IMG/VR virus record: IMGVR_UViG_3300042561_000572
Coordinates: 30,156-94,155 of that record
DNA from: a virus
Reading direction: 5' to 3' (one strand)
DNA: 64,000 nt
This document shows positions 884 through 35,849 of the stretch, piece after piece (the first letter of the stretch is position 1; each line of letters begins with the position of its first letter). A program made the position numbers and the translations under genes. The notes below the pieces were generated by a model, which saw only the letters and a program-made list of their open reading frames with translations, was not told the DNA's origin and did no database searches.

Positions 884-1088
884 ATACAACTTTACCTAAT
901 TCATAGTCAAATACTCTCCATCTAAGACTTCTTTTAAATTTAAAAGTATGAAGTCTATTATCATGAGCCATTTCTATAATACTTATGAAGTAATCTAAAT
1001 CATTAGTTATTTTAAAAGTACCTTTATCAATAACCCAATGATTATCTTGTAATGTTTGTATTCTATATCTAATTTTAAACATAAGCAC
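876..1088 (-). CDS. small hypothetical protein
   Basis: 70-aa ORF overlapping the stop of the giant gene. Confidence 0.6.
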   Translation of the reverse strand: MLMFKIRYRIQTLQDNHWVIDKGTFKITNDLDYFISIIEMAHDNRLHTFKFKRSLRWRVFDYELGKVVYE

Positions 1089-4000
1089 TATCTCCTGAAA
1101 CTAAATAAGTTTCACTTCTACTATCACTACTTAAGTTTTCAAACTCAACATCTGTTGCCCAAACACCAACTACAACTGGTGGTACATCTAACTTATCAGG
1201 CACATCTATAAAGTCACTGGACATTGGATCTATTTCAGCTTCACCTCTAGCAGCTATAGCATCAGATAAGTTATCTTGCATTTGAGCCAACTTATTATTT
1301 AAATTATTATCTCCTTGGTTGAAGTTGCTTTTTAATAAACCAGCACTTTGTTGAATACTACTATCAAGCATATTCATAGCTAAAGCACCAACAAATGATC
1401 CAATAATAGCACTAACACCACTCTCTGCTATTGGCACATTATGTCTAAACAAAGGAGCAACAACATTTCTATTAAACAAGTCTGTTAACTTAGGAGTAAC
1501 ATAAGTACCAACTAGACTAAGTGAAGCTTCAGTTGATGCAGCTTTAGCTAAGTTAGTGGCCCAATCTTCATCAGGATTTCTATAAGCTTTACTTCTAAAG
1601 AGAGCACCAGCAGCATTAGCAGCACCTTTACCATGTGGCATGTTATAACCCATTAAACTTAAAGTACCACCAATAACACCTGCTGCATCCATACCAGCTT
1701 GATCATTAGAAGTACCATATATAGCACCACCAATCATACTAAGTAAAGCAGGACCAACTATATTAAATATACCATCAGCAGCTTTAACTTTTAACTCTTG
1801 TCTAGTAGTACCATCATTACCTCTAGCAACATGTTCAGGTTTAAAGTAATCTTTACCCTCCTTACTTAAAGTACCTAACAATAAGCCATTTTCAGCTAAC
1901 AATTCATCTGCTAATGCTTTAGCCTCTGCTTCATTTTTATTTATATTTTTATGCTGACCTACAATCTGAGCATGTATCTTATTATAAGTAACATCACTTA
2001 TTTCACCAGCTTGATTCATAGCAGCAGCAACTTCACTAATAGCTTGTAATTTAAAGCCTTGTGATGTTTTCTTACTTTGTCTATTAATCAAATCACTAAC
2101 TAATTCATTCTTTCTTTCAACCTTACCATCAATGGTTACTTCATGTTGTATTTCAACATGTTTAAGATGCTTATACATTTCTGCCATTTCTTTAGCATTC
2201 TCCTCATCACCACTAAAGTTAGACATCATTTGTCCCATAGCATCAGCATTAGTCAATTTAGGATCATTAACAGCTTTAAACAGTCTGCCCATAACAGAAG
2301 CACCTTCCATGCTAAGTTTACCTTGAGCCATTAACCTATAAGCAGCATTAAACAAATCACCACCTAATAAGCTAGTACCAACCTCTCTAACACTAGAACT
2401 TGTAATGTTTCTTTGCATGTCCTTACTAGCTTTATTTAGATGAACAAATCTATCTAAACCACTACCATAATCACCCATAAATGTCTTAGTTTGAGTGATA
2501 CTAGCATGATGACTAAGTACTAATAGAGAAGCAGTTGATAAGCCACCACTACTTTGTCTAACCTCATTAAGTTTAGCCATATTATCATCAGTCATAGCCA
2601 TTCCCATATGTTCATAAAGCATAGTACCAAAAGCACCATTAGAGTTAGTAATCATCTCTGCTGAGAACCTGTTAACTTGTTCTACTACAGCCTTATCTCT
2701 ATGTTGTTCTGATACATAACCAACACTATAACCACTGGCTCTTGTAGAAAATCCAACTCCTCTACTATTAATACCATCTATAGCATTATATAAACCTTCA
2801 ACTGCTTTAACAGCATCTGCTTTATTCCCCATTGCTAGCTCAGCAAGAGTTAAACTAACACCTTTACTATCACTACCCTTACCTAAAAAGCCATGTAATC
2901 CTTCACTAATAGTCTTTTCCAAAGCTCTATTACTACTAGCTTTATCATCAATCTTTAACTTACCATCCTTACCAATTTCTAATGAACCAAAGTTCTTTTC
3001 AAAGTTAAACATAGTAGTAATACTTCTAAGACTACTACTAACTTTAAACTTAATTAAAGAATCTTCATTTACATCAGACCCCATTAAAGCCATTCCAATA
3101 TCTCTTTGATCTCCAGTTATGTTATAGTCTCCAATGCTGCCATATCTACCTTCTCCATCTTTCCTTTCACCAGTAGAACCAGCAGCATGAATCATCTTAT
3201 TTAAATCCATTAGACCCTTCATACCAGCACCAGGACCAATTTTAGAAGCCATATCATTAACTAAACTTTGTCTTTTACTCTCATCAGCAGTAGTATATTC
3301 TTCTGACATCTTAATAAGTTCAGCCATAACAGAACTAGAATCACCCTTTAGTTTTATACTATCTCTAAGCATCTGTTGAACTGCTTTATTCCAACCTTGC
3401 AATTGTTGTGCTTTATCATATGAAGCTTGTAAGTTAGCCATAAATCTAGTGCCTTCATCTGATGGCATAACAACAGAGTTACTAGCATTATTAACTGGCC
3501 CATGTTGTCCAGTCATTCTGTTCATCTTCTCAGCAATCTGTGGACTATCACCTTCTAATATGTGATACAAACTAACAATAGGAGAATCAGCAACAAAAGT
3601 GCCAAGTAAAGTGTTATAAGTCTTACCTAACACATCACTACCAGCCTCACCTAATGTTTTAGTTAATACATCATATGTTGATTCACCCATACCAATACCT
3701 AAGCCAGCATTAATCTTACTGTATAAAACATTACTAGCTTTACTAGTTGCATCTAACTTACTAAATAGAGTTGTAAAATAAGCCTCTTTATTAACCTCAC
3801 CTTCAAAGTTATGTAAAGTATTACTGCTTTGTTTTAACTCATCCCAAGTAAGTCTCATACTGTTTGTTAAAGCTTCTTGTAACTCTTGTTGCATATCAGT
3901 ATCTTGCAGTTGAGTTGAGTTTAAAGTCATACCAATAGCAGTAAAGAACTGATTCTTATCAGAACCTGTTTCTATGCTTTTTATCATATCATCTAAAGTA

Positions 4001-7000
4001 TTCTTATCAAAGGTTAAACCAACAGAATGTTTACTGCCCAAAGAAGCATTTAACAAGTCCTCAACTCTAGTATTCATTTCACTATTAACACCTTGCATAC
4101 CACCATATAAGCCTTTACCTTGATCTAACATAGCAGCCATAGAACTAACATTAATAGTACCCTGACTTCTAAAACCACCTTCATTACTACCTCTAAAGAA
4201 TCTACTATCAATACCCATATAAGAGGCCACATCTTTTGCCATCTTACTTTGTTTATCAGGAGCATTCATATCCTTTTGCAATGACTTTAAAGCCATAGCA
4301 TCTTCAAATAATTTAGCTTCTTCATTGGCTAATGTCTTCTCTAATTTACTAAGAGCTTCTGTGTCTGATATAGGACCAACAAAAGCTTTCATTGAACTAA
4401 TTTCTTTCTTTTTATGTTCAATTACAAATCTTCTATCATCAATTGTATTAATCTTTTCAGTAACCTTATGTAGCAACGTCATATAGTTATCACCATCAAA
4501 GTCACCTAAGTTACTAGTTAAGAATGACAAACCACTAAAGATTGAAATACTCTTACTTCTATCAACATCAAACCTAACAATATTGTCATCTATTGCTAAG
4601 TTATCAATCATTTTATTGAATTGATCAACACCTCTAATAGCCATTAAAGTAGCAAGATGAGATTCAGTTGAACCATATGGTGCTGATCTCCAGCTTTGAT
4701 TTTGCATGTTATCAAGTTCACTCATACTATTATGAATGTAGCCTAATTCTTGTAATGAATAGTGTAAGAACTTAGTACTTAAAGTGCCTCCTTGATCCTT
4801 ATAAGCAGCCACTTGTTCTTTAATGTTAGTCATATCATTAATCATATAACCAACACTCTTTCTATTAGCAGCTACTATAAAGTGTTCTTGTTCTGACTTA
4901 GCATTCTTAGTAGAAGTAGGAGCAAAGCCCTCCATAAAGTTCTCTAAGTTCTTTATTCTATTGTCAATGTATTCAAGTGTAATCTGTCTAGCAGCTTCAA
5001 AGTTACCACCTGTTTTTGGATCAGCAGTGTCATTAATTAGATCTGTAATACTTTGATGAGTTTGCTTATACACAGTATGTTTACCTCTCATAGCACCCTC
5101 TAATTCCTTGCTATAATGATTAACAAGATCAAGGCCCATGCTATATCTATTCTTCATAGTACTATTATGAATAAAGTCTCTAATCTCATGATTCTTACCA
5201 AGATATATAGCATCTTGGTAACCTCTTTCAGACATCCAATCATTAACAGTACCTATTAAACCTTTATATTCTTCTCTCTTCTTAGGATTAAGACTGTTTT
5301 CAGCTAACTTTGTATCAGCTTTCAACTTAGCAAATTGCAGATTAGCTAATACATAACTAGCAACATATGCCTTATCATAAGCACCAGTTACATCTAAGTT
5401 TTTCTTAACAGTATTAAATGAATTTTGAGCCTTTTCAACAGCAGCATCTAAATCATTTATATCAGTAGTCTTACCAGTTTGTACTTGATTAAGTAAATTA
5501 TGAGCACCACCAATAACTTCAACACCATTCTGCAATTTTAATGCTGCCATAGTTGAAATACCTCTAACAAGCATTTGCTTTTGATAATCTAATACAGTAC
5601 CTAATGACTGATTAAAATCTTGTAGTTGTTTATTACTTTGATAATTCTTAAACTTAGTAGACATCTCACTACCAAGTGTTGTATATGTTAAATGTGCAGC
5701 AGCAGTAACCTCAAATAGTTTCTTTCTAAGACTAGCAATACCTTCAGGTGCTCCATACTTCTCATTAACAAATTGGGGCATAACATTCATGTTAGCAGCT
5801 AAACTTAAGTTAGGAATACCAGTACTAACATAACCTTCAAACTCAGTACCATGACCTGCAACTGCTTTTTGCATTAAAGTATCAGAACTAGCTTCTGATA
5901 TAGCTTGTAATAACTCATCACCAAGATAACCTAATCTAGCAATCATATCAGTCTCTTCAGGGCTTAAATTAACATTGAAGGTGGCACTATTCTTTTGTGC
6001 TGCTCTAGCTTTAGCAACTTTAATCATTACATCATTTTCAGCAGTACCTGGTACAAAATAACTTTGCATATTTAATGTTTTACCAACAATATCACTAACA
6101 AAGTCACCAAAAGATGAACCAACTTGATTTAACAAATCAGCACCAGGCATAAATATATATGTGTTTTGAGTATTACTAAATACAGTATTAACATCTCCAG
6201 TCATTTGATCTACAAGTGGTCCACCAACTACTTTTGGCATTAATATGTTATAAGTCCTATTACCAGTATCTTGTAACATTTGTAGCTTAGGTTGAGTTAT
6301 ATCTGTACCCATACCTTTACTTTGTTCTAAGTTATAAGTTATGGCAGACTTTCTTAAAGCTTCAATTATATGTTGACCAACACGCCTTAATTGACCAGCA
6401 TAATCAGTAAGCTTAGCAGTAGGATCACTATTATGTTTATCCCTATTTAACCCATCAACATATGTTGCTTCAGCAAGAGTTAAATCACCGTTATTATAGT
6501 AATCTTCTACTTTACTAACATCAAAGTTCTTTTTAATAGATGGTTTATAAATAGTTCTATATTCTTTTATTAACTCACTACTATTCTCATTAGCATTATA
6601 ATAAACTCCTAAGAAGTCCCTACCAAAGAAGCCACTCATAGTTACTGGATCTAATGCTTGAATTGCTTGTATACTCTTTAAATACTCTGCACTATCAGCC
6701 ATACCAACACTAATAAGTCCAATCTCTTGAGCAGCAACAACAGTACCTAACACATACGCTAAGTTACCCTTATTACCAGTTCTAGTAAACTGTTTAGATT
6801 GAGCTTCTAATGGTGCTAACAAGTGTTGCATTTCAGTCTTAGCTCTTAAGTTCTTACCAAGAGGATCTTTACTAGCAGAAGGTGATATAGACAATGATAA
6901 TTGCACTGCATAGTTTTGTTGCAAGTATATACCCATTTGATTAGCAAGTTGTTCTTTCTCCTCATTAGTCATATTAAAAGCATTATCACTACCACCTAAA

Positions 7001-10000
7001 GCTGCTGCAATTTCCAACAATGGATCATTTAAAACTACACCACTGTATGCATCATAATTGCCTGTAACTGCATTAGGTGTAGCAGCTCTTGTTAAAGCTC
7101 CTATTTCTGATAGTGGACTTGTCTTTAAAGGACCAATAAAAGAATCATCATTAAACTTACCAGTAGTACCATCATTTTGTCTTACCTTCATTTTAAGCAT
7201 CCAATCAGTAACCATACTAATGTCACCTCTTTGATTCTTAAGCTGACCAAACATATCAATAGCAGTTAACATAGCAGAGACACCTCTAGTATATAAGTCA
7301 CTACTATTAATTACATAACCATCACCACTTCTACTACCAACAGTGTTAACATAACCTTGTAATAAGCCTGTTAAATCTCCACTATCAGTTAATATGGCAT
7401 CTCTAATAGATCCTACAAGTTCCTTATTATTCATAATGAATTGTGGAATACTACCAAAGATATTATCCTTTGATCTAGTAGCTTTACCAGTAAGTACATT
7501 CTGCATTTCAGCCATTCTAATAAAGGTGCCAAACTCACCTTTAATAGCAGCCTTCTTATAAGCTTTAACATATTGATCATTCAACATTAAAGCATCACCT
7601 GGTTTATTCCTTTCATATGAACCATCAGCTATAATGTCTAAACCAAACTGACTAATCAAAGCTGCTGCTAACATTCTATTAGTCTGTTTAACAAGAGTAT
7701 TAGCAAGTTTAGTTCTAACTCCATCAGGACCAGTTACATCTTTAGTAAACAACATAGAAGCATGATCCATAAAGAAGCCACTCTTTAAGTTGTTAGGATT
7801 AATCAAGCCATAAACATCAGATACTTGATTCTTTAAAATACTAGCACTACTTATACCTGCTTCAACTGTTTTAATAGCCCCCATATCATCTTTAAAAGTA
7901 GATTCATAGCCTAATGATTTCATAAAACTACTAAATACACCCTCAAATTGACTACCTTTTAAAGCAGCACCAACACCTTTAAATAAAAGACCAGCAGCAG
8001 TACCTTCATGTCTTCTACCAGAACCAGGTTGTAATATTGGCAAAGCACTTACTTGGTATTTTATTTCATTAGTGCCTGGACTACCACCTTCAACTCTACC
8101 AGCAGTAAGAATAAGATGAACTGAATCTTCACCAGGTCTATTACTAATTGACTTTTGTTTAACAGATGCTACAGGTTTACCAAATAAACTGAAGTTTTCA
8201 ATCTGTCCAATTAAATAATCAGCACTACCAGTACCTCCAACATAAGTTACATTATCTCCACCATCTGCTCTAATTTGAACAACCTTATTAACACTTCTAT
8301 CATATACAAAAGTATCACCTTCATTAATAACAAGGCCATTCTTTTGCAACATATCACCACTAAAAGTTACTTCACCAACATGTGTTCTAGCATCTAACAT
8401 AGAAGCCTTAATACCAGTATTAGTAACAGTTGGCATACCAGCATAATGTTGTGTTCTAAATTTAGGATTAGTATAGAAGTGATCACTATAACCACCATTA
8501 AGTTGTAATAATACAAACTGTTGTTTATCTCTTCTACCTCCAACAACTGAACCAACACTATTAGCAACACTACTATAACTAATCATCTTCATTCTAAACA
8601 TGTTGTTAAGTATTTGATTAGTATCTTCTCTCTCTGTCTCACTTAAGTTTAAATCTTTAAACTTATCAAATAATTCTTTTCTCTGCGCTAATACAAAGTT
8701 ATAAGCACTTTCATTTAGCACTGTTCTAACATCAGTATCAAACATAGAACCTAAGTTTACTTCTTCTGCTGTTAGATAATTATGTATAAACTTCTTAGCT
8801 TTATCATCAGTTAATAAAGATGTTAATTGAGCTATATTATCTGCAATGCCCTTTCTTTGACCTGCATTATATTCTTTTAAACTACCCTTTTCTAATATAG
8901 TCTTAGAAGCCTCTTCAGATACTTCATACATTAATCTACTACCAAGAGCATTCTTAATTCTTTGGTTAATTTGTGCTGGTTTACTAGGATCAAGATTAAA
9001 TAACATACCTCTTTGATTACCTTTAACATTTAACAATGTCATAATCTCATCAACTTCACTGTCTTTAAAGTCACCACTATTAACAAGTTTATCCTTACTA
9101 ATAAGAACACCAATACCAGTTCCTTCAAGGATATCAATACTATTCCTATCAGTTGGAAACTTATTTCTAACACCAAATGATTCTAGTTGATAACCTTTCT
9201 TATTCTGAGTAGAAACACCTTCAGCAACACCACCTAAATAAAACCTTTCATTACCTTCATAATCAGTACCAAAACCACTATAAACACTAACATCTCTAGC
9301 AAATGTTCTAGCATATTGTAATGTTTGTAGAAGAGGGTTCTTACTAACATCAGCAATGTTTAGTAAACTCATAGCTCTTTCATTACCAGCATCTAAACCA
9401 TAATTAATATACTTACTAGCAGGAACACCTGCCGCATAACTAATAGCCTGGTGAGCTTGTAAATAAGGATCAAATATAGTTTTAGATAACTCTGTCATCT
9501 GACTATTTAAATCTCTTTCAGCATTATATTTACTATTAACTCTAAGAACATCTAAGGTTAAATCTTGATAACCTTCTTGACCTAATAGTTGACCAATAGC
9601 ATGTATAGCTGTAAAAACATCATCACCACTTTTAGCATTTCTAATATTTTGTATTTGATCTGTTAACTTAATGCCAAACTTTGTACCTTCAACATTAACA
9701 TTAACATTTAACCTGTTATAAACATCTACACCAGCTAACTGTCTAGTAGTATCTAAATAACTAATACCTTCAGCATTAAATCTACTTTCCAATGCATTAG
9801 CAAGGTCTTTATATCCACCCCTATCAAACAAGTTATTAGATCTACCCCTATCAAACAAGTTATTAGAATAAGCTAATCCATCTGTATTTATGCCAACCTT
9901 ATTATCAGCTAACATGTATCTAGTATCACCCATCAAAGAAATAGCAAAGTCTAATGCTAAACCTCTTTTAGTATCAGCATCAACACCTATTAACTTACTA

Positions 10001-13000
10001 GCAGGATTACTAATAGCTTGTTTATAAGCCATCTCACCAATCATAGTAGCAAAGATACTAGTAGTATTATCAATACTAGACATCTCAGCAGATTGACCAT
10101 GTTCTAAAACACCAGGTCTATCCCCAAACTTCCAACTAATCTTTCCACCAGTATTATTAGTAAAGTTACTGTTATATATTAACTTACCTTCCTTTTGAAA
10201 GAACACAGGACCAGGTTGATTAGCAGTACCTTGTAACATACCAAGAGTATAAGTAAGCCTACTAGTATTAGTGTTTAAACCTAATAACTTACCAGGCATA
10301 ATAGCAACTTCTAACATAAGAGGAGTGCCAAATCTATCATACTTTCTAGTAATAGACATAGCATCCCCTAACCCTTTACTCATCTCCCTTAAAGTACTTT
10401 CTAACTTTAAAAGATCACCAGTATTAGATTGTCTAGCCCAGTATGGTAAACCTTCAATGGAGGGTAACAAACCATTATCTAACCTATTACCATAGTTAAG
10501 TTGAGCATAAGACATAGTTACAGCCTTATTATTATCTTTTAACTCATACATTTCTTCTTCTGCTAATAAAGAATATTCATTACTAAAGCCTAAGTTTAAA
10601 GCCTCAATGTTATCTCTAAAGTCTTGGTCATAGCCAGTATTACTTTCCTTAGCAGCATCAATGAATAACTTTCTATTAACATAAACAGCACCCATTTCAT
10701 CACTAACATATGGATCATTACCTCCAACACCAAGATACTTATTATCAGGTCTAATATCAACACCTAATGAGTTCATACTAAAGTTAGAAGAGTTAGCAGC
10801 AGTACCAGCTATTTGCTGAGTATATTTAACATATGTACTACCATCTTTTCTTGTTGCTGATTCATATCTATAAGCACTAAAAGACTTACTATGTTGTCTA
10901 GGAACATCAGCACCAGCCATATTACCACTAGCAATAGCAAGCATTTGTAATGCAGTTAAGTTCTTACCATCAGTAATATCTAATTGAGCATTAATAAGTT
11001 CAACCTTTCTATTTAGTGATTGATTACTCTCTGTTACAGCATTAACAAAGCCACTAATAGAGCCACTAAATTCATTATGAAACCTAGCACCAAACCTATC
11101 ATTTAAATAATTCCAAGTAGGTTCTATGACCTGTTTAGTAAAGTTATTAGTATCAACTACAACCTTACTAATACCCATTGCTATCAAACTAAAGTTCTTT
11201 CTTTGTATGTCTCTATACAATTCATATCTAACATCTTGTCTTGATCTAAACTGACCACTTCCAAGAGTATTGGAACTAAATTTACCCATTTCACCAATCT
11301 CTTGACTGGTAGCATCATTAAATCTATTAGCTCTATTATTAGGATCACTACCATTAACATCTAAATGATTAACATGTAATAAGTATGCTTGATCAAGCAC
11401 CATAGTCATACCTAAATCACCAGTATATTTACCCTTTAATTCGTCTAAACTACTATTCATTTCTCTACCACTTTCAGTGTGTAAATAGTCAACAGTAGCC
11501 TTCAATGTATACATAATATCAGTTGCAAACTTAATATTAGATTGACTACTTATAGTTGTTATTTGTTGTTTTTGAGCAGCAACAACTTGTTCATACATAA
11601 GAGCAGATACAGTCTTCTTATATTTATTAACCTTATTATCATTTAACTTTTGAGGATCAAACTTACCTAATAACAAATTAAGTTGTGCTAACCCAGAGAA
11701 GTCTTTAAAAGATGTCCAATTATTTAATAGTTCTGGTAACCTGTTAATATATTCTTGTCTCTTTTTAATTAAATCCTTATTACTATGAAACATGCCTAAC
11801 ATTTCATAGTTGGAGCCAGCTTTAAATATAGAATCACCAACAGGACTAGTTAAGTTAATAGAGCCTAACACAGCAACCTGATCTGTTATATAAACCTTTC
11901 TATGATGAGCAGGGCCAGCAAGCTTAATGTTAAACACACCAGGAACCCCATCTTTACCATTAACAATCTCTTCTGCTTCTTGTCTAGTTTTTTTCTTGCT
12001 ATTAACAAGTTCATTGATAATAGTTTCTTTTAACTTCTCCATCTTTGCAACTTCAAGTATATTAGGCCCAAAGATAGCAGCACTAGTACCTTCATCACCT
12101 GGAATAGGAGAACCAACAATCATATTAACTTTAAAGCCATAGTTCTCATTACCTATGATTTCTCTATAGATCTTACTAACAACAACATCACTAATAGCTC
12201 TATTTTGATATTGGAAAGTATCAATTGTAATGCTTTCTTTAGCAGATTCAAACATAGAAACAAATGGTAATATACCAGGTCTAGTTTGATACTTAACATC
12301 ATCAATCACTTTAGCTGCTTTTTGTTTATAACTATTGTTAATACTAGTATCAATAGCTTTAATGTTTCTTCTATTTATACTAACACCACCCTTAGTTAAC
12401 TCATTAACATAAGACTTACTTCTAACAAAGTCTAAGTCAGTAATAGTCTTACCAGCTTTACTTCTACTACTATTAAAAGTACCTTCATTAATTGCTCTAA
12501 GCTCATCTGCTGAGTTACCATCAACAGGAACAAGACCACTACCAAATAGATCAGCATTAACTAATCTCTCTAATGTCTCTTGTCCTCTAGCTTCCATATC
12601 TCTAATATTAGAACTAGATTGAACACGACTAAAAGCATTAGCATACTGATAGCTTTGATCTAAGTAATAATTATCTTTAGCTTTAGTAGGATCTTCAATG
12701 TATAAACCTTTTTTAGCTAAAACATTACCAAATATATTTTCAAATACCACTTGACTAGCATAAGCTTTAGTCTCAGTAGGATCAATTCTATAAGCTTCAC
12801 CAACTAAGAACTTAAGACTCTTTCTACTATCTAATAAGCTATTAGAAACATTACTATCAAACTCAGTAAACAGTCTAGTAGTAACAGTTTGACTAAGACC
12901 TAATACAAACTTATTAGAGAATGCTTCTCTTTTACCAGTAGTAGTAACATGTTTAGGATCAAACATACCACCTGATATATCACTAGTCATACCAATAGCA

Positions 13001-13182
13001 TTTTGCCAATCACTATTAGTTGAGCCTAACTCATTAGTAAAGACTTCACTGTTATACAAACCATAACCAACAGAAGTTGCAAGAGCACTTCTATTACCTT
13101 GTTCTATAAAACCATGAAGACTACTAACAGATTGTCTTCTATGTTCTAAATGATATTCAGTGTTTGAGAAATAACTTGACAT
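1075..13182 (-). CDS. giant multidomain virion protein: PLD(HKD) domains + single-chain two-barrel RNA polymerase + tape-measure-like C-terminus
   Basis: HRKVYITD...GSINL (aa ~427); beta-like GGYSD, LQPGSGRRH...FKGV and DVYGLINP; beta-prime-like GHGTEFEG...MP, RSAP and NLGDFDGD (aa 2894-2898, nt 4489-4503); hydrophobic Gly/Ala segments near the C-terminus. Confidence 0.8.
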   Translation of the reverse strand: MSSYFSNTEYHLEHRRQSVSSLHGFIEQGNRSALATSVGYGLYNSEVFTNELGSTNSDWQNAIGMTSDISGGMFDPKHVTTTGKREAFSNKFVLGLSQTVTTRLFTEFDSNVSNSLLDSRKSLKFLVGEAYRIDPTETKAYASQVVFENIFGNVLAKKGLYIEDPTKAKDNYYLDQSYQYANAFSRVQSSSNIRDMEARGQETLERLVNADLFGSGLVPVDGNSADELRAINEGTFNSSRSKAGKTITDLDFVRSKSYVNELTKGGVSINRRNIKAIDTSINNSYKQKAAKVIDDVKYQTRPGILPFVSMFESAKESITIDTFQYQNRAISDVVVSKIYREIIGNENYGFKVNMIVGSPIPGDEGTSAAIFGPNILEVAKMEKLKETIINELVNSKKKTRQEAEEIVNGKDGVPGVFNIKLAGPAHHRKVYITDQVAVLGSINLTSPVGDSIFKAGSNYEMLGMFHSNKDLIKKRQEYINRLPELLNNWTSFKDFSGLAQLNLLLGKFDPQKLNDNKVNKYKKTVSALMYEQVVAAQKQQITTISSQSNIKFATDIMYTLKATVDYLHTESGREMNSSLDELKGKYTGDLGMTMVLDQAYLLHVNHLDVNGSDPNNRANRFNDATSQEIGEMGKFSSNTLGSGQFRSRQDVRYELYRDIQRKNFSLIAMGISKVVVDTNNFTKQVIEPTWNYLNDRFGARFHNEFSGSISGFVNAVTESNQSLNRKVELINAQLDITDGKNLTALQMLAIASGNMAGADVPRQHSKSFSAYRYESATRKDGSTYVKYTQQIAGTAANSSNFSMNSLGVDIRPDNKYLGVGGNDPYVSDEMGAVYVNRKLFIDAAKESNTGYDQDFRDNIEALNLGFSNEYSLLAEEEMYELKDNNKAVTMSYAQLNYGNRLDNGLLPSIEGLPYWARQSNTGDLLKLESTLREMSKGLGDAMSITRKYDRFGTPLMLEVAIMPGKLLGLNTNTSRLTYTLGMLQGTANQPGPVFFQKEGKLIYNSNFTNNTGGKISWKFGDRPGVLEHGQSAEMSSIDNTTSIFATMIGEMAYKQAISNPASKLIGVDADTKRGLALDFAISLMGDTRYMLADNKVGINTDGLAYSNNLFDRGRSNNLFDRGGYKDLANALESRFNAEGISYLDTTRQLAGVDVYNRLNVNVNVEGTKFGIKLTDQIQNIRNAKSGDDVFTAIHAIGQLLGQEGYQDLTLDVLRVNSKYNAERDLNSQMTELSKTIFDPYLQAHQAISYAAGVPASKYINYGLDAGNERAMSLLNIADVSKNPLLQTLQYARTFARDVSVYSGFGTDYEGNERFYLGGVAEGVSTQNKKGYQLESFGVRNKFPTDRNSIDILEGTGIGVLISKDKLVNSGDFKDSEVDEIMTLLNVKGNQRGMLFNLDPSKPAQINQRIKNALGSRLMYEVSEEASKTILEKGSLKEYNAGQRKGIADNIAQLTSLLTDDKAKKFIHNYLTAEEVNLGSMFDTDVRTVLNESAYNFVLAQRKELFDKFKDLNLSETEREDTNQILNNMFRMKMISYSSVANSVGSVVGGRRDKQQFVLLQLNGGYSDHFYTNPKFRTQHYAGMPTVTNTGIKASMLDARTHVGEVTFSGDMLQKNGLVINEGDTFVYDRSVNKVVQIRADGGDNVTYVGGTGSADYLIGQIENFSLFGKPVASVKQKSISNRPGEDSVHLILTAGRVEGGSPGTNEIKYQVSALPILQPGSGRRHEGTAAGLLFKGVGAALKGSQFEGVFSSFMKSLGYESTFKDDMGAIKTVEAGISSASILKNQVSDVYGLINPNNLKSGFFMDHASMLFTKDVTGPDGVRTKLANTLVKQTNRMLAAALISQFGLDIIADGSYERNKPGDALMLNDQYVKAYKKAAIKGEFGTFIRMAEMQNVLTGKATRSKDNIFGSIPQFIMNNKELVGSIRDAILTDSGDLTGLLQGYVNTVGSRSGDGYVINSSDLYTRGVSAMLTAIDMFGQLKNQRGDISMVTDWMLKMKVRQNDGTTGKFNDDSFIGPLKTSPLSEIGALTRAATPNAVTGNYDAYSGVVLNDPLLEIAAALGGSDNAFNMTNEEKEQLANQMGIYLQQNYAVQLSLSISPSASKDPLGKNLRAKTEMQHLLAPLEAQSKQFTRTGNKGNLAYVLGTVVAAQEIGLISVGMADSAEYLKSIQAIQALDPVTMSGFFGRDFLGVYYNANENSSELIKEYRTIYKPSIKKNFDVSKVEDYYNNGDLTLAEATYVDGLNRDKHNSDPTAKLTDYAGQLRRVGQHIIEALRKSAITYNLEQSKGMGTDITQPKLQMLQDTGNRTYNILMPKVVGGPLVDQMTGDVNTVFSNTQNTYIFMPGADLLNQVGSSFGDFVSDIVGKTLNMQSYFVPGTAENDVMIKVAKARAAQKNSATFNVNLSPEETDMIARLGYLGDELLQAISEASSDTLMQKAVAGHGTEFEGYVSTGIPNLSLAANMNVMPQFVNEKYGAPEGIASLRKKLFEVTAAAHLTYTTLGSEMSTKFKNYQSNKQLQDFNQSLGTVLDYQKQMLVRGISTMAALKLQNGVEVIGGAHNLLNQVQTGKTTDINDLDAAVEKAQNSFNTVKKNLDVTGAYDKAYVASYVLANLQFAKLKADTKLAENSLNPKKREEYKGLIGTVNDWMSERGYQDAIYLGKNHEIRDFIHNSTMKNRYSMGLDLVNHYSKELEGAMRGKHTVYKQTHQSITDLINDTADPKTGGNFEAARQITLEYIDNRIKNLENFMEGFAPTSTKNAKSEQEHFIVAANRKSVGYMINDMTNIKEQVAAYKDQGGTLSTKFLHYSLQELGYIHNSMSELDNMQNQSWRSAPYGSTESHLATLMAIRGVDQFNKMIDNLAIDDNIVRFDVDRSKSISIFSGLSFLTSNLGDFDGDNYMTLLHKVTEKINTIDDRRFVIEHKKKEISSMKAFVGPISDTEALSKLEKTLANEEAKLFEDAMALKSLQKDMNAPDKQSKMAKDVASYMGIDSRFFRGSNEGGFRSQGTINVSSMAAMLDQGKGLYGGMQGVNSEMNTRVEDLLNASLGSKHSVGLTFDKNTLDDMIKSIETGSDKNQFFTAIGMTLNSTQLQDTDMQQELQEALTNSMRLTWDELKQSSNTLHNFEGEVNKEAYFTTLFSKLDATSKASNVLYSKINAGLGIGMGESTYDVLTKTLGEAGSDVLGKTYNTLLGTFVADSPIVSLYHILEGDSPQIAEKMNRMTGQHGPVNNASNSVVMPSDEGTRFMANLQASYDKAQQLQGWNKAVQQMLRDSIKLKGDSSSVMAELIKMSEEYTTADESKRQSLVNDMASKIGPGAGMKGLMDLNKMIHAAGSTGERKDGEGRYGSIGDYNITGDQRDIGMALMGSDVNEDSLIKFKVSSSLRSITTMFNFEKNFGSLEIGKDGKLKIDDKASSNRALEKTISEGLHGFLGKGSDSKGVSLTLAELAMGNKADAVKAVEGLYNAIDGINSRGVGFSTRASGYSVGYVSEQHRDKAVVEQVNRFSAEMITNSNGAFGTMLYEHMGMAMTDDNMAKLNEVRQSSGGLSTASLLVLSHHASITQTKTFMGDYGSGLDRFVHLNKASKDMQRNITSSSVREVGTSLLGGDLFNAAYRLMAQGKLSMEGASVMGRLFKAVNDPKLTNADAMGQMMSNFSGDEENAKEMAEMYKHLKHVEIQHEVTIDGKVERKNELVSDLINRQSKKTSQGFKLQAISEVAAAMNQAGEISDVTYNKIHAQIVGQHKNINKNEAEAKALADELLAENGLLLGTLSKEGKDYFKPEHVARGNDGTTRQELKVKAADGIFNIVGPALLSMIGGAIYGTSNDQAGMDAAGVIGGTLSLMGYNMPHGKGAANAAGALFRSKAYRNPDEDWATNLAKAASTEASLSLVGTYVTPKLTDLFNRNVVAPLFRHNVPIAESGVSAIIGSFVGALAMNMLDSSIQQSAGLLKSNFNQGDNNLNNKLAQMQDNLSDAIAARGEAEIDPMSSDFIDVPDKLDVPPVVVGVWATDVEFENLSSDSRSETYLVSGDSAYV
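9817..9867. repeat. in-frame tandem duplication with 27-nt period (SNNLFDRG x2)
   Basis: acccctatcaaacaagttattaga occurs twice, separated by tct. Confidence 0.9.
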
Positions 13183-13186
13183 TTAA

Positions 13187-13267
13187 TGCTTACTTATAAT
13201 ATATATTTGACTATTATTAATGTATATACTAGTATAATTACAGTTAATAAATAAATATAAGTAAGCA
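13187..13267. promoter_or_regulatory. divergent control region with 12-bp inverted repeat TATAAGTAAGCA
   Basis: tgcttacttata (13187-13198) and tataagtaagca (13256-13267) each point toward one of the divergent genes. Confidence 0.45.
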
Positions 13268-13349
13268 GTTAATATAACAGTGCTTATAAGTTATTTATAA
13301 TAAATAATTACAACAATTAAAACAATAACAAACCTTAATAACAACTAAT

Positions 13350-13751
13350 ATGTCCACAGCATCAACAGTATTTGAAATTCCTCTTCCTTCTGGTAAAGTT
13401 ATCTCTTTTAGACTTCCTACATACAGAGATAGACAAGCAGCAGTTAAGAGATTTAGACAACAACAAAATGAAGTAGGTTGGTCAATTGAAGAGTTTTTAG
13501 CATTTGGTATGCTTGAATTTGTAGATGGACTGCCTTTGCAAGCTGGTCTTGACCCTATTGATCAAGTATCTGAATGGTCATTGAAAGATGTAAATATTTA
13601 TCTAGAAGTATTTATGCCCTTAGTATTTCCTGATGATGTTGCTAAGCAAAGAGCACAAGACATGGTTAAGGCACTTCTTGAGGGAAAGTCAGTAGTGAAA
13701 CAAGTGGCCTCACCTATTACTTCAGCCCCTACTACAGCTATAACCGCATAA
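13350..13751 (+). CDS. tail assembly chaperone (lambda gpG-like)
   Basis: FEIPLPSGKVISFRLPT N-terminus typical of tail/hub assembly chaperones; contains in-frame G GGA AAG slippery site. Confidence 0.75.
   Translation: MSTASTVFEIPLPSGKVISFRLPTYRDRQAAVKRFRQQQNEVGWSIEEFLAFGMLEFVDGLPLQAGLDPIDQVSEWSLKDVNIYLEVFMPLVFPDDVAKQRAQDMVKALLEGKSVVKQVASPITSAPTTAITA
13682..13688 (+). promoter_or_regulatory. programmed -1 ribosomal frameshift site GGGAAAG
   Basis: GAG GGA AAG in frame; the -1 frame is open from here into ORF 13769..14179; same heptamer as lambda G-T. Confidence 0.8.
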
Positions 13752-13768
13752 CAGATGTTGCAATATCG

Positions 13769-14179
13769 TTGGCAGTATTATATAAACTGCCAATGGTAAC
13801 AACTAGAAAGTGTATATATAACTATGACTCTAACTATCCTGAAAAGTATTATAGAGACATACCAATATCAGAAGATTTAATATTATTAAGAGAGTTAACG
13901 TTTGAGGGTTATGCCAATCACTTCATAGAAGCATACAACTTAAATAACTACATACAAATTAGTGGCACTATACAGATACCCTATGGTAATGACTGGCTAG
14001 ACTTAGATGAAGTTGAGAGAAGAGCATTTGAAATTGTAGTTAACAAAGTAAACATTGAAAGACACAAGGCAGCTCAAGCAGAAAAAGAAGAACTAAAGAA
14101 AAACCTTCAATCTTCAACTCAAAATCATTCTAGGTCAATGTTTGATGGTATACCAATGTCTAGTATAAGTATGAGATAA
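13769..14179 (+). CDS. C-terminal part of frameshifted tail chaperone (gpT-like)
   Basis: Weak TTG start; in the -1 frame of the upstream gene; WLDLDEVERRAF resembles gpT/T4 gp51-like motifs. Confidence 0.7.
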   Translation: MAVLYKLPMVTTRKCIYNYDSNYPEKYYRDIPISEDLILLRELTFEGYANHFIEAYNLNNYIQISGTIQIPYGNDWLDLDEVERRAFEIVVNKVNIERHKAAQAEKEELKKNLQSSTQNHSRSMFDGIPMSSISMR

Positions 14180-14188: not shown

Positions 14189-15658
14189 ATGGCAACAAAT
14201 AATACAAAAGCAACTACATCAACTAAGAAGGAGGAGACTAAACAAAAAGCATCATCTCCTCCTTCTAGTGGAGAAATAAACTTCTCTAAATACAAAACAA
14301 ATCCACCATTACAAGTGTTTGGAGATACTTCTAACAAAGTAAGACCAAACACTTACAAACAATTAGGTAGAGCCACCTCATTTGTAAGTAATGGTGATTC
14401 TTTGTATGTAAATACAGGGCCACATCAATATGCTTTAGCAACATGGGACTATGCTAGAAAGAATGAACCAATAATATCTGATGGTTTAGATAAGATAGTA
14501 TTATCAGTTTTGGCTAAGATAGGTTCCTATAATCATCCTAATCCAGACATAAGAAAGTTTATAAAAGCTAACTTAAAACATAAGATTAGACACTGGATTG
14601 AAAATATAACATATTCTATGTTGTGGTCAGGTAAGTCTGTATCAGAGATAATATGGGAAAAGAAGTGGGATGGTGACACCCCTCAGTTATGGGTAAAAGA
14701 TTTAATAAACTATCATACATCTCAAGTTATATTAAGATTAAATAACTATGGTACTTTAACACATGGAGAACAAGTGTTAAATAGCCAATTTAATACAGGT
14801 GTTTGGGTTCCTAGACCTATTTTAACTGAAGATAAAAAGATGTATAAAGTTGATAGAAACAACACAGGATCACATATAAGACTTGCTAAAGACAAGTTAA
14901 TTATAGCTACATATAAAGATGAAGGTAATAATCCTCATGGCACACCAGCTTTATATGCAGCTATTCAATGGTCTTTATACAAAGCAGCTTTTGTTGATAT
15001 GTATTCTATAGCATTAGACAGATATGGAACACCTTTAATGTATTTTATAGTGCCAGCCACACAAACAACTGAAGACATGGAAGAAGTTGATGGTACTATT
15101 AGAAAAAAGATGTTTAGAGAAGCATTACAAGATGAACTACAAGACTTAAGAAGTGGTTCTGTTTTAATACTTGAAAGACAAGGAAACAAAGATGCACCAG
15201 AACCAAAAGTAGAGTCATTAACAACTGGTAATAACTTTGGAGATTCATTTATAACAGCCATTGATAAGTGTGATCAAAACATGTTACATGCTATGGGAAT
15301 ACCTAACTTACTTATAAAGAATCAAGACTTAGGATTAGGTTCTGGTGGAACAACTGAAAAGCAAGTTGAAATGTTTGAAATGTCTATTGAACAGATAGCT
15401 ATAAAAGTAAGTGAAGTATTAATTGATCAACTTATAAAGACTTTAATAACTTATAACTTTTCACCAAAACTAGTAGATCATGCTGATAACTATGGAGAAT
15501 TTATAATCAAACCAATAAGATATGTTGATTATAAAGTAATGGCAGAAAGTGCAAAGATATTAACAGAAGCAGGAGTTATAGCACCATTAGTAAGTGAAAT
15601 GGATAGAAAATTTATTAGAAATCAACTAGGAATACCTAATGATCATGAGGATGTATAA
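14189..15658 (+). CDS. portal protein (DUF935/Mu gp29-like)
   Basis: 489 aa; GKSVSEIIW, GNNPHGTPAL, LDRYGTPL, FITAIDKCDQNMLHAM and LITYNF follow the DUF935 portal pattern. Confidence 0.8.
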   Translation: MATNNTKATTSTKKEETKQKASSPPSSGEINFSKYKTNPPLQVFGDTSNKVRPNTYKQLGRATSFVSNGDSLYVNTGPHQYALATWDYARKNEPIISDGLDKIVLSVLAKIGSYNHPNPDIRKFIKANLKHKIRHWIENITYSMLWSGKSVSEIIWEKKWDGDTPQLWVKDLINYHTSQVILRLNNYGTLTHGEQVLNSQFNTGVWVPRPILTEDKKMYKVDRNNTGSHIRLAKDKLIIATYKDEGNNPHGTPALYAAIQWSLYKAAFVDMYSIALDRYGTPLMYFIVPATQTTEDMEEVDGTIRKKMFREALQDELQDLRSGSVLILERQGNKDAPEPKVESLTTGNNFGDSFITAIDKCDQNMLHAMGIPNLLIKNQDLGLGSGGTTEKQVEMFEMSIEQIAIKVSEVLIDQLIKTLITYNFSPKLVDHADNYGEFIIKPIRYVDYKVMAESAKILTEAGVIAPLVSEMDRKFIRNQLGIPNDHEDV

Positions 15659-16724: not shown

Positions 16725-17267
16725 TTATATAGGAATGTTATCAGCAAAATCTTGATATAGTATTAACATTTTAGGTAAGAAATCTCCATTCATTTGTGTA
16801 TCTTTAATACTAATACCATGTTCAACATTACCAAATACTTCTATTAATGATCTATCAATTCTGTCTCTTATCTTGATAGAGTTTTCATATGCAGTGGAAA
16901 AATAATAATTATAATCTTTAGGTATTTTAGTTTCTTCATTTAAATAATTTAAAGGATAAATCTTTAACCAAAGATCTTCTAATACCAACACCACATCTTG
17001 TTTATCAAAAGTTGTATAATGTTTAAACATTAAACCTTCATAGAGATTATAAGCTATTAGATTTAATATAAAATTATAAACACCCATTAATGTTATGTTA
17101 TTAAAAAGCCCTCTATTATCTTGATTCCTTAAATCATAACTTATCAACTCATAAAAGATACTTTTACTAGATAGACTATCAACAAACTGCTTAGCATTAA
17201 TAGATAGTAAATAATCTTTTTCTTTATCTAATATTCTAATTTGATCATATAGGGATTGCATTTGCAA
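16725..17267 (-). CDS. hypothetical protein, tandem paralog family copy 4 (probable start ATG 17261)
   Basis: ILDKEKDYLL...DFLPKMLILYQDFADNIPI shared with neighbours. Confidence 0.8.
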   Translation of the reverse strand: MQMQSLYDQIRILDKEKDYLLSINAKQFVDSLSSKSIFYELISYDLRNQDNRGLFNNITLMGVYNFILNLIAYNLYEGLMFKHYTTFDKQDVVLVLEDLWLKIYPLNYLNEETKIPKDYNYYFSTAYENSIKIRDRIDRSLIEVFGNVEHGISIKDTQMNGDFLPKMLILYQDFADNIPI

Positions 17268-17781: not shown

Positions 17782-17785
17782 TTAT

Positions 17786-31972: not shown

Positions 31973-32431
31973 ATGAATAATATTAATAATATGTTTGATC
32001 AAATAGCTAAAGAAGTTATCTTATATACAGTTGCACATAACCAACCAGATAAGATCATTGGAACATTTAAAGACATTAGCACTAAAATAAACACTAAATC
32101 AGGAGTGTTATTAGATGGTGAATGTTATATTACATTTCAGCTAAAAGATGGTAATTTAACATTACAAAACTTAAAAGATAAAGTGTTTTACATTACATTT
32201 GATCTTCAAAAGAATGATACAAGATGTGTTTTAAGACTTTGTAAATTAATTGATGATCAATGTAATAATGAAGTATTAGCTGGTAATGCTGATAATATGG
32301 GAAGTATTCCACAATCAATACAAACTTTTAAAGATAACATTGATAAGATAAATAAAGCATTAGAACTAGGAATAGTTAAACTAGATCAATCATTTGAAGA
32401 CTTTAAAACATTAATCAGTAAACAAAAATGA
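31973..32431 (+). CDS. degenerate tail-tube paralog
   Basis: IIGTFKDI, LLDGECYITF, CVLRLCKLID and IPQSIQTF align to the tube protein and to 32428..32874. Confidence 0.6.
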   Translation: MNNINNMFDQIAKEVILYTVAHNQPDKIIGTFKDISTKINTKSGVLLDGECYITFQLKDGNLTLQNLKDKVFYITFDLQKNDTRCVLRLCKLIDDQCNNEVLAGNADNMGSIPQSIQTFKDNIDKINKALELGIVKLDQSFEDFKTLISKQK

Positions 32432-32984: not shown

Positions 32985-35849
32985 ATGTCTAAATTTTACT
33001 CAGATAAAGCGCCAACACCAGTCTTTGCAGTTACATTTGTAAGTAATAGAGATGGTATTATACCTAAAGAAAAAGTACAAACTAGTAGCAAAAGTACTAC
33101 TCCTCAACAAAATGAAGAAGATATTACTAATCCAAACTTTAAATCTAGTGATTATAAAGAGGGAATAGAAGCAGGAGAAAAAGATTTATTAAATAAGATT
33201 GCTTCAATTAAAAAGACTCAAAGGAATAATCCAACACCAGATGAAAAGAAAAGATATGATGAAGCTTTAACTGATTATAGAAAAGCTTTAAGAGAGTTTA
33301 GAGAAAAGAATATGCCAACCTTTTATGGACCTTCTAATTCTTCTACTCCAACTATACCTACCAAAGATAGTGAATACTTAATTTATTCTAATTTACAAAT
33401 ACAAAAAACAGATGATCCAACTGACTTATCACAACAATCTAATTGGTATTTAAGAGAAGCTGAAGTTGAATTAACTAGAGATTGGCCCATTCAAAAGGCC
33501 AAGTTAATTGTAACTTGTAAGCTATTAGATAATGGCTCTATACCACCTTTAGTTGAAGTTGAGAATGGTTTTGTATATGAGAAAAATAATCAGACTCAAG
33601 TGTTTACACCTGTCACTGGAGGGCGCTTCTTATCAGCAGATGATGAAGTGAGAATATATGCTGGTTATAAGAATGATCAATGTATTAGTATGAATGATTT
33701 AGATAAATATCCATTTGATTTTACTAACTTAGAAGCTACAAAACCAATACCACCAATAGTTGAAGCTCAAGTAAAGTTCCTAGAAAAGCAAGTAGTTGCT
33801 ATACAAAATGCTATAGATGCTATAAACAATCCTCTAACAGATCCAACTCTTTATGCAAACATAGGTATTGCTTTACTTCCATTAGGTTTATTACTCTTGC
33901 CAGCAGCAGGACCAGGAGGAGCAGTAGCTACTATTGCTCCAGCTAGTAAAGCTTTAAGTGTTTCAGGTGCTGCTATATCTACAACAGGAACCACAGGAGC
34001 AGCCACAACAGCGTTAGGTTTTCCCATTGGAACAGCAGCAACTTCTACTGCAACAGGAGCTACAAGTACAGCATTAAGTACACAAGTACTTCCTAGAGTA
34101 GCAGCATCTACTATTTCTACGGCTACTAATGCTGCTGCTAGACTACCTACAACAACTGCTGGTTTAGATGCTTTAGCAACTGCTGCTTATAATAAAGCTA
34201 TTGCATCTGGATTAGGTATAACTGCTGCTAGTGTTGTTGCTATTAATACTGTATTAGCAGGATCTGCAAGTGCAGAAGATATAGCTAAACTCTATCCTGA
34301 TAAGATAACTACTAACTATTTAGAAGGTAGAATATATCTAAATGATAATAAAGCTTTAATTGATTCATTAAAAGGAGAAATTACTGCTACTAATAACTTA
34401 ATACAAGTACTACTAAGAAAAGCTGGAGTTGAAACTAAAACATACACAGCAAATCCTAATAAAATAGCACCTATATTCTGGGGCTTTATAGATTCAGTTG
34501 ACTTTATATCTAACTCTAATGCTGGTGTTCAAATTATATACAACTTAAGAGATAGAAGTAGAATATTAGCAGATACTAAACTTGTAACATTACCCTTCCT
34601 AGGAACAGATGCTAATAATAAAAACACATTTGAAGGGTTAAAACATAAGACAGTTGAATCTGTATATAGAGCTACTAATGGTGGTATTTACTTAGATAAT
34701 AGTTATCAAACAGCTTCATCTTTAGCTTGGAGAAGTGGCTTTAATAAAGGGGAAGTTATAAGTTTATATGAAGATATAGATAAGAAGATAATAGATACAA
34801 AGAGTGCATTAGCTAAGGAAAGATTAAAGTATACAGCAGCAATAGAAGATCCTGCTAGATGGGTTATTGCTAATGCATTCTTATCATCTAGTAATATATT
34901 AAATAAGGCAGATTATAATAACCTTGATCCTTTATTTCATATATGGACCTTGCAAGGACCGCTAGTATCAGGTAGTGGTAATAACACTATGCAGATCATA
35001 AACAAGTCACCATTTGAGATATTAAACTATTTAGCAATGACTGAAGTAATGCCTATTGATATATTTACATCACATATCAATGGACACTTTATGTTTGCAC
35101 CAAGAATATTAGATACAACTGGTCTTTATGATGAACAAAGGGGTAATAGATTATACTACTTCTTTGATTGCTTTGATCAATTACCAAATCAAAGAAATTT
35201 AATAAAAGATATAAGAGTACAAACAAGTACAGTTGGTGTTTATAACAGATTTACAGTATTAACAGCAGACTTTGGTAGTTCAACTAATGCTTCATTATCT
35301 GGTCTAACATCTATTGTTGATATAGCATCAGCTAATACTAAAAATAGAAAGGTACCAATTAAACAACATGTAATTGTAGATCCTAAGATAAAAGCTAGTG
35401 AAGGTAACAAAGAAGGAGCAGCACAAGCATTAGCACTTACAACAGCCTCTACAATGGCTAGGGATCACACTATGATTATATTTAAGATTATAGGTGATTC
35501 ATCATTTTATCCAGGAGAAGCTGTAAGAATATTTAATACTGTCCTTCATAGTAAAGGTATATTTACTTTTAATGCTACCTCTACATCATCTGCTGTCTTT
35601 TTAAAGTCCCTATATGATGAAGTTCAAAAGCTATTAAATAGTGCTGTTAAACAAGGAGGTGATAAGAATAAAGTAGTAGATTTAAGTGCTGTAATTGATA
35701 GTATGAGAAGAGTAGCAGGAGCACCTTCAGATGACTTAAATGATGCATTACCCATGTATAAAGTAAGAGGCATAACACATTCATTAAAAGCTAATGGTAA
35801 TGATGCTGGATACACTACAAAGATAGTTGCTGTTGCTGATATTTTATAA
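32985..35849 (+). CDS. baseplate hub protein (T4 gp27/P2 gpD/VgrG-N-like) with large insertion
   Basis: DEVRIYAGY, PIFWGFIDSV, LRDRSRIL, IIGDSSFYPGEAVRI and YKVRGITHSL...GYTTKI. Confidence 0.7.
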   Translation: MSKFYSDKAPTPVFAVTFVSNRDGIIPKEKVQTSSKSTTPQQNEEDITNPNFKSSDYKEGIEAGEKDLLNKIASIKKTQRNNPTPDEKKRYDEALTDYRKALREFREKNMPTFYGPSNSSTPTIPTKDSEYLIYSNLQIQKTDDPTDLSQQSNWYLREAEVELTRDWPIQKAKLIVTCKLLDNGSIPPLVEVENGFVYEKNNQTQVFTPVTGGRFLSADDEVRIYAGYKNDQCISMNDLDKYPFDFTNLEATKPIPPIVEAQVKFLEKQVVAIQNAIDAINNPLTDPTLYANIGIALLPLGLLLLPAAGPGGAVATIAPASKALSVSGAAISTTGTTGAATTALGFPIGTAATSTATGATSTALSTQVLPRVAASTISTATNAAARLPTTTAGLDALATAAYNKAIASGLGITAASVVAINTVLAGSASAEDIAKLYPDKITTNYLEGRIYLNDNKALIDSLKGEITATNNLIQVLLRKAGVETKTYTANPNKIAPIFWGFIDSVDFISNSNAGVQIIYNLRDRSRILADTKLVTLPFLGTDANNKNTFEGLKHKTVESVYRATNGGIYLDNSYQTASSLAWRSGFNKGEVISLYEDIDKKIIDTKSALAKERLKYTAAIEDPARWVIANAFLSSSNILNKADYNNLDPLFHIWTLQGPLVSGSGNNTMQIINKSPFEILNYLAMTEVMPIDIFTSHINGHFMFAPRILDTTGLYDEQRGNRLYYFFDCFDQLPNQRNLIKDIRVQTSTVGVYNRFTVLTADFGSSTNASLSGLTSIVDIASANTKNRKVPIKQHVIVDPKIKASEGNKEGAAQALALTTASTMARDHTMIIFKIIGDSSFYPGEAVRIFNTVLHSKGIFTFNATSTSSAVFLKSLYDEVQKLLNSAVKQGGDKNKVVDLSAVIDSMRRVAGAPSDDLNDALPMYKVRGITHSLKANGNDAGYTTKIVAVADIL

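Follow-up and report, generated by a model that had tools for sequence, protein, structure and literature searches.

The tape-measure proteins (TMPs) of tailed phages are often helical and carry hydrophobic segments. Fusion of such a protein to a virion RNA polymerase is known from one siphovirus, P23-45, whose gp96 is a TMP of 5002 amino acids (aa) with an N-terminal RNA polymerase of the DFDGD type, the polymerase having been proposed to act at the point of DNA entry, where transcription of the first genes would be its task (Chaban et al. 2024, PMC10770324). Neither Ma-LMM01 nor Microcystis phages appear in the supplements of that study. The present analysis concerns a giant gene coding for a 4035-aa protein in a 64,000-nucleotide stretch of viral DNA (hereafter the window), which forms the last 64 kb of the 94,155-bp single-contig virus record IMGVR_UViG_3300042561_000572 (G+C about 30%) and belongs to a contractile-tailed phage related to the Microcystis phage Ma-LMM01. 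The original prediction had proposed, with P23-45 as a precedent that holds as cited, that this gene may also be the missing tape measure of the phage. The giant protein is most likely delivered with the virion. By prediction, its N-terminal part is a phosphodiesterase of the PLD type and its middle a two-barrel RNA polymerase in a single chain, and the protein ends in a helical, hydrophobic module of about 450 aa; this last module sits beside a conserved G/GT-type -1 frameshift pair. That the C-terminus sits in the tail and acts as a tape measure, or as part of one, is a serious possibility, to which we would give a little less than an even chance.

The second system that has to be considered is the G/GT pair of phage lambda, whose overlapping open reading frames (ORFs) are linked by a -1 shift at the heptamer GGGAAAG, a shift that needs no downstream RNA structure. 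Xu, Hendrix and Duda are said to have described this tail-assembly-chaperone frameshift as conserved in 2004. Two small ORFs of comparable layout lie head-to-head with the giant gene, as had been claimed, with 167 nt separating the start codon of the giant from the ORF at 13350-13751 on the plus strand. The elements of this pair and of its counterparts in two described phages are as follows:

13350..13751, plus strand: G-like ORF, 133 aa, the zero-frame product (phrog_32670, E 9.6e-5), aligned across 5 lineages
13682..13688, plus strand: slippery heptamer G_GGA_AAG in the X_XXY_YYZ register; the -1 frame opens directly after the TGA at 13679-13681
13682..14179, plus strand: T-like extension, 165 codons in the -1 frame
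L003:1741-2531, minus strand: gp081/gp082 pair of Ma-LMM01, with an in-register AAAAAAG and a -1 frame that is open for 172 codons into gp082
L005:18809-19602: pair of MaMV-DH01, with an in-register AAAAAAG

The second ORF lies in the -1 frame of the first, with an overlap of 67-70 nt, and a shift at the heptamer would yield a GT-like fusion of about 278 aa in the window. Because in-register heptamers occur at 0.0057 per codon in the window genes, only about 0.13 sites would be expected by chance in the overlap. In six of the seven diverged lineages either GGGAAAG or AAAAAAG stands at the homologous site within an identical layout: two metagenomic lineages with 56-71% identity in the G product have the former, while the latter is found in Ma-LMM01 and MaMV-DH01 (gp081/gp082) and in three further IMG/VR lineages with only about 30-35% G identity. 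Moreover, amino-acid homology in the -1 frame of the relatives sets in at the slip site, ahead of any start codon, and the sizes predicted for the two products across the lineages, about 110-145 and about 275-290 aa, agree with those of G and GT. The only lineage devoid of a canonical in-register heptamer is the Microcoleus phage My-WqHQDG (MyW; L004:7975-8864), where GGGAAAAG is present out of register; this exception could reflect another slip mechanism or an assembly error in a partial genome. No strong stimulatory RNA structure was found 3' of the slip site of the window (z = +1.1), which is uninformative because lambda G/GT needs none either. Judged from the sequence, the two small ORFs form a real -1 frameshift pair, which is G/GT-type by its architecture and has no match to known chaperone families. 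In the public records of Ma-LMM01 and MaMV-DH01 its members are annotated as separate hypothetical genes.

In all seven lineages examined, the pair is flanked by the portal gene on one side and, on the other, by a giant ORF (either exceeding 3200 aa or running off the locus). The orientation of the giant ORF relative to the pair varies between divergent and co-directional, such that the adjacency has been kept through an inversion of the giant gene. The giant gene has, in this respect, the neighbor that a tape-measure gene would be expected to have, namely a G/GT-type -1 frameshift pair, and no other frameshift-chaperone candidate was found at the tube-hub junction of the window. The pair departs from that of lambda in lying between the giant and portal genes and in showing no family or profile similarity to known chaperones; it resembles it in the overlapping frames, the -1 shift at GGGAAAG (or AAAAAAG), products of about 110-145 and about 280 aa and the lack of a strong downstream RNA structure.

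The giant gene itself can be divided into the following parts:

1075..13182, minus strand: giant ORF, 4035 aa (P0001), homologue of Ma-LMM01 gp080 (3562 aa) and of the My-WqHQDG giant ORF
11740..12258, minus strand: PLD-like (HKD) domain, residues 309-481, the sole Pfam match (PLDc_2, E 1.8e-5, 25 bits against a 27-bit cut-off)
4489..4503, minus strand: DFDGD metal-binding motif, residues 2894-2898, within NLGDFDGD, a signature of two-barrel RNA polymerases
3238..4725, minus strand: best-conserved core common to gp080 and phrog_31006, residues 2820-3315
2443..3285, minus strand: helical domain, residues 3300-3580, with an AlphaFold2 predicted local distance difference test score (pLDDT) mostly of 60-90
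1078..2439, minus strand: C-terminal helical module, residues 3582-4035, predicted at low confidence; candidate tape-measure or membrane-insertion part

Its 14 close homologues range from 3379 to 4003 aa. Farther afield, it matches phrog_31006 (E 2.7e-48), a profile of 3562 positions and hence of the same length as gp080, and tblastn and BLASTP recover several collinear blocks that it shares, at about 22-26% identity, with both gp080 and the My-WqHQDG giant ORF, the latter truncated. The motif NLGDFDGD is invariant in nine homologues and, despite an overall identity of only about 25%, is kept in gp080 (residue 2537) and in the MyW giant (residue 1509); this is a DxDxD metal-binding loop in the NADFDGD-like context that typifies single-chain RNA polymerases of the two-barrel (DPBB) type. 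The PLD-like domain displays an HxK(x)4D...GSxN motif from residue 427, the motif residues of which do not vary among 9 homologues. Only a single clear HKD half-site could be verified, the PLDc_2 score is weak and under the cut-off, and an HKD regular expression found no match in gp080. The giant-family profile had no match among PDB sequences. The polymerase motif and a putative PLD-like domain, as had been called in the giant, are present. Ma-LMM01 gp080-gp083 reproduce the arrangement of the window, with a giant (about 25% identical over several blocks), a frameshift pair, a portal and a syntenic module, in a genome of 162 kb as against 94 kb, and the records list its giant, pair and portal genes as hypothetical proteins.

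The early region, outside the window, holds a further gene for a DxDGD protein, a 1546-aa ORF (genome C1:14200-18840, minus strand; L014:14200-18840; phrog_30979) with EGDTDGDG at residues 1169-1173; the genome may thus encode two polymerases of the two-barrel type. This ORF is a candidate for a second, non-virion RNA polymerase, paralleling the gp64/gp96 couple of P23-45, where a smaller two-barrel polymerase-like gene (gp64) likewise lies elsewhere in the genome. The parallel with gp96 extends to the giant single chain and to the placement of a DFDGD polymerase N-terminal to a helical region with membrane segments. The two differ in that gp96 belongs to a siphovirus, is encoded in the TMP slot, has a metallopeptidase domain and matches an approximately 800-nm tail with its full 5002 aa, whereas the window giant belongs to a contractile-tailed phage, is encoded on the portal side, has an added PLD-like domain and places about 3300 residues before its ruler-like part; no sequence similarity between them was detected. 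Polymerases of the virion type that are giant in size and flanked by large regions without an assigned function are also known in N4 (gp50) and the crAss-like phage phi14:2 (gp66), which are podoviruses with neither a tape measure nor a G/GT pair, and N4 gp50 is a T7-like polymerase rather than one of the two-barrel type. The phi14:2 protein gp66, like the window giant by its motif, is of the DFDxD two-barrel type (bioRxiv 10.1101/2020.03.07.982082).

The last 736 aa of the giant were modeled with AlphaFold2 from 11 aligned sequences. Residues 3300-4035 are predicted to be almost wholly helical, with the pLDDT dropping below 50 from 3582 onward, and Gly-rich hydrophobic segments lie at 3804-3822, about 3833-3846 and 3916-3934 (the first and last by the Kyte-Doolittle scale), followed by an acidic/aromatic tail. 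The helicity and the hydrophobic segments that had been claimed for the last 700 or so residues are borne out by this; the claimed richness in G, A and M turned out to be only modest. What emerges is a long, mainly helical and poorly ordered chain with hydrophobic segments, as might be expected of a tape measure. The last 500 residues are among the best-conserved parts of the protein and are without indels (48-95% identity among 14 homologues), with the C-terminal helical module conserved at 73-86% among the same 14. Although the C-terminal 736 aa are not detectable by BLAST in gp080, an analogous C-terminal module, with hydrophobic Gly-rich helices and an acidic/aromatic tail, is present in gp080 as well as in the MyW giant, and a GGT.S.LGY-like motif is common to the C-termini of the window and MyW giants. 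A wide fold search of the C-terminal model against the PDB (VIA-align) gave generic helical-bundle or hairpin matches only (both models were searched, with Z up to 5.8 and 8.9). Two short matches to the C-terminus (P0038 and P0039) were considered as free-standing versions of the module and set aside, since they start at internal methionines and look like truncated gene calls.

If the giant is the tape measure, a coherent sequence of events can be envisaged. The frameshift pair would chaperone the C-terminal module of the giant, as lambda G/GT does gpH, and this part would come to lie in the lumen of the tail tube, serving as the tape measure or part of it. Contraction of the sheath would then expel it, allowing its Gly-rich helices to insert into the cytoplasmic membrane and form or line a conduit for DNA. 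The polymerase would come to stand at the entry site, where it would transcribe the first genes in the way suggested for gp96 of P23-45, with the second polymerase-like gene (1546 aa, DTDGD) perhaps taking over later. The conserved link between the pair and the giant, the TMP-like C-terminus, the empty canonical slot and the P23-45 precedent with the same N-to-C polarity support such a role without amounting to proof.

The canonical slot can be appraised from the plus-strand block from 13.3 kb onward, which is a myovirus structural module syntenic with gp083-gp102 of Ma-LMM01 (Fukuivirus) and with My-WqHQDG:

14189..15658, plus strand: portal protein (phrog_113, E 2.7e-30)
19720-20949, plus strand: protease/scaffold (Pfam/PHROG scans)
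20991-22310, plus strand: major head protein (Pfam/PHROG scans)
28263-31025, plus strand: sheath
31057-31878, plus strand: putative tube
31973-32874, plus strand: two small ORFs between the tube and hub genes (152 aa, then 148 aa), with a 4-nt ATGA overlap
32985..35849, plus strand: hub-like protein, 954 aa, gp093 homologue
35971-37158, plus strand: spike-like "baseplate protein"
between the "baseplate protein" and the lysin in the gene list, plus strand: ORF with a weak Amidase_2 assignment
37575-38735, plus strand: lysozyme/M23 lysin, 386 aa
40289..43459, plus strand: 1056-aa ORF in the position of Ma-LMM01 gp098
44186-45247, plus strand: Baseplate_J

As had been asserted, no recognizable TMP gene follows those for the sheath and tube; the next genes are the two small ORFs, the second of which (148 aa) is a truncated tube-protein paralogue (phrog_34837, E 5.5e-14), and then the gene for the 954-aa hub-like protein. 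In Ma-LMM01, which has no ORF in place of the two small ones, the hub gene directly follows the tube gene, and no tape measure is annotated in the Fukuivirus records. Among the ORFs scanned in the window and in the remaining 30 kb there was no Pfam or PHROG match to a TMP family, barring two exceptions, namely the M23-peptidase-domain matches of the 386-aa lysin and one weak match of a Dps-like protein. The search of the rest of the genome that the original prediction had called for yielded no family match beyond these, and the analysis brought up two unconventional candidates, the 1056-aa ORF at 40289-43459 and an insert in the hub-like protein at 32985-35849. By position, the 954-aa ORF as a whole might itself have been taken for the TMP; this was rejected as its ends align with the hub-like gp093 and its hydrophobic stretch is a lineage-specific insert.

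Several observations weigh against the giant as the tape measure. Its gene does not stand between the tube or chaperone genes and those for the hub and baseplate; it adjoins the portal and head genes, with some 15 kb separating it from the gene for the tube, and the frameshift pair, too, lies outside the interval between the major tail (tube) and TMP genes in which G/GT pairs are encoded. Homology is equally unhelpful: Pfam and PHROGs assign P0001 to no TMP family, HMMER with the C-terminal 736 aa against 1.84 billion representatives recovers only its own family, and tblastn with the same segment against phage genomes finds nothing, gp080 included. As for the pair, five G members have no Pfam match up to E 10 and fall into no chaperone family, the G-family profile has only chance-level matches in the PDB, and seven T members have no match in PHROGs. 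Since TMP families are very diverse, the family mismatch weakens the case for membership among TMPs, not for a TMP function. Geometry presents a further difficulty. The ruler-like part comprises only the last 450-740 aa, corresponding to about 70-110 nm at 0.15 nm per residue. Tail lengths of the relatives disagree: that of Ma-LMM01 was reportedly put at about 170 nm by Yoshida in 2006, and that of MaMV-DH01 has been reported as 230-260 nm, for which a ruler of about 100 nm would be short. The ruler part therefore looks too short for the 160-260 nm tails reported for the relatives, and the expectation that about 700 aa would fit a tail of about 100 nm does not accord with the length reported for MaMV-DH01. 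In addition, about 3300 further residues per chain must be housed somewhere, which is a geometric problem in its own right. A complex prediction of G (residues 1-114) with residues 3580-4035 of the giant scored 0.00, gave no verdict and counts neither way. The notion of the giant as the missing TMP retains the pair, its conserved position and the domain composition in its favor, and is deprived of the slot position and of C-terminal homology.

The most substantial competing account holds that the role of tape measure belongs to the gp098-like 1056-aa protein and makes of the giant what the original prediction had offered as its alternative, a distinct internal ejection protein, which is stored in the capsid or on its portal side, in the manner of the N4 virion polymerase, the T7 core proteins or crAss-like cargo, and is expelled through the contracted tail. 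Its C-terminal helices would then serve membrane insertion or encapsidation, and the frameshift pair would either serve gp098 at a distance or load the giant at the portal. The 1056-aa gene sits in the hub/baseplate block between the lysin and Baseplate_J genes; such a layout would parallel that of T4, in which the tape measure gp29 is encoded in the hub cluster and not after the tube gene, albeit in a phage that has no G/GT frameshift pair. Its length varies, with homologues of 870, 1056, 1109, 1160, 1177 and 1222 aa across lineages, and gp098 of Ma-LMM01 (L001:17829-21362) bears six tandem acidic 15-aa repeats (DDEELKQEIIELIEG-like) near its C-terminal third, which are absent from the window homologue. 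An AlphaFold2 model of the 1056-aa protein is mostly of low confidence; it shows a long helical hairpin at the N-terminus and, toward the C-terminus, helices together with a conserved beta domain. Hydrophobic Gly-rich segments are present as well. Further, 1177 aa at 0.15 nm per residue would give about 176 nm, close to the length of about 170 nm reported for the Ma-LMM01 tail; the portal and head genes are the neighbors of the giant gene and the pair; and in N4, phiKZ and crAss-like phages the virion RNA polymerase travels as cargo of the capsid. These points count against a tape-measure role of the giant and make the gp098-like protein an equally plausible tape measure. The latter, nonetheless, also lacks any TMP-family match or other family assignment in Pfam and PHROGs, and the ESM Atlas offers nothing for it; about 40% of it is predicted to be non-helical, S/T/N-rich and of low complexity, which together with the conserved beta domain at its end would fit a protein of the baseplate or fibre network too. 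Nor do 1160 aa fit the 230-260 nm tail of MaMV-DH01, and we know of no G/GT-type frameshift chaperone that serves a capsid-internal protein or is encoded 26 kb from its tape measure. We regard this arrangement of gp098-like ruler and separately stored giant as a tentative possibility of appreciable weight, which we would still sooner doubt than accept.

A different alternative is that the giant is no virion component at all but a membrane-anchored transcription and nuclease factory protein acting inside the cell, with which the frameshift pair would have nothing to do, being perhaps an accessory of the head or portal. The giant gene is indeed a lone minus-strand unit between plus-strand blocks. 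To our knowledge, though, giant single-chain polymerases encoded beside structural genes have so far all been virion proteins (N4, crAss-like phages and P23-45), and the adjacency of giant, pair and portal survives the inversion of the giant gene. The Ma-LMM01 transcriptome would be compatible with such a non-virion role in that sigma70-like promoters were described for all temporal classes and no phage polymerase was proposed (PMC5780444). Conversely, given the second, smaller polymerase-like gene in the early region, the giant fits the virion member of a polymerase pair as in P23-45. On balance we hold a purely intracellular giant to be unlikely.

There remains the 954-aa protein, for which the ESM Atlas gives a hub-like (GpP-like) lead and in which residues 146-258 and 487-952 align with gp093, setting off an N-terminal extension of 145 aa and, at residues 259-486, an insert of some 228 aa that is rich in A, G and T and includes two strongly hydrophobic segments. 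That this insert and extension constitute a short built-in tape measure is highly improbable: they come directly after the tube genes, are fused to a hub-like domain and contain the strongest hydrophobic segments of the module, but the insert would span only about 35 nm and is absent from Ma-LMM01 gp093 and the MyW homologue, whose phages are also without a canonical tape measure. The rest of the probability falls to other arrangements.

Beyond these genes, the module continues past Baseplate_J with large distal proteins and then the large terminase (60993-63182); when 20 kb of the window were compared with phage genomes by megablast, no match came up. A 169-aa ORF inside the head module (19055-19564, minus strand) is Dps/ferritin-like by sequence and labeled as a DNA-binding protein in PHROGs (phrog_3636, E 8e-25). 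Also inside the head module, on the opposite strand, are four paralogous ORFs in tandem (16725-18993, minus strand; 180, 178, 183 and 219 aa) that have in common an N-terminal '...KEKDYLL.VNA..F.D.L.S...' and a C-terminal '...Y.DF...IP' motif and no family match. A GIY-YIG homing endonuclease gene (22444-23301; phrog_314, E 1.9e-25) is inserted so as to separate the major head gene from the structural gene that follows. One relative, IMGVR_UViG_2909739949_000001 (70,971 bp, 33% G+C), which carries the giant ORF, the frameshift pair, the portal gene and the 1222-aa gp098-like ORF, is a provirus according to the IMG/VR classification; if this is correct, the lineage includes temperate members.

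What is new here is the unannotated conserved -1 frameshift pair of the Ma-LMM01 group, its link to the giant outside the tail slot and the added PLD-like domain. Ma-LMM01 and its relatives have no annotated tape measure, tail chaperone or phage polymerase, and their early transcription is unexplained; the gp081/gp082 pair provides a concrete feature, hitherto unannotated, that links a 3500-4000-aa protein with a polymerase motif to chaperones of the tail type. The fullest version of the proposal, in which a single chain in Ma-LMM01-like contractile-tailed phages unites tape measure, membrane conduit, virion RNA polymerase and PLD nuclease and is loaded into the tail by a dedicated G/GT-type chaperone that moved with it to the portal side of the genome, is one that we put forward as a possibility of appreciable weight, though somewhat less likely than not. 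Should the role of ruler fall to the gp098-like protein, G/GT-type frameshift chaperones would be serving something that is not a tape measure, which would also be new. If the giant is the tape measure, a contractile tail would for the first time be found to hold a polymerase fused to its tape measure, and this in a culturable model phage whose host is a bloom-forming cyanobacterium; the strategy of P23-45 would extend to contractile tails and to ecologically important cyanophages.

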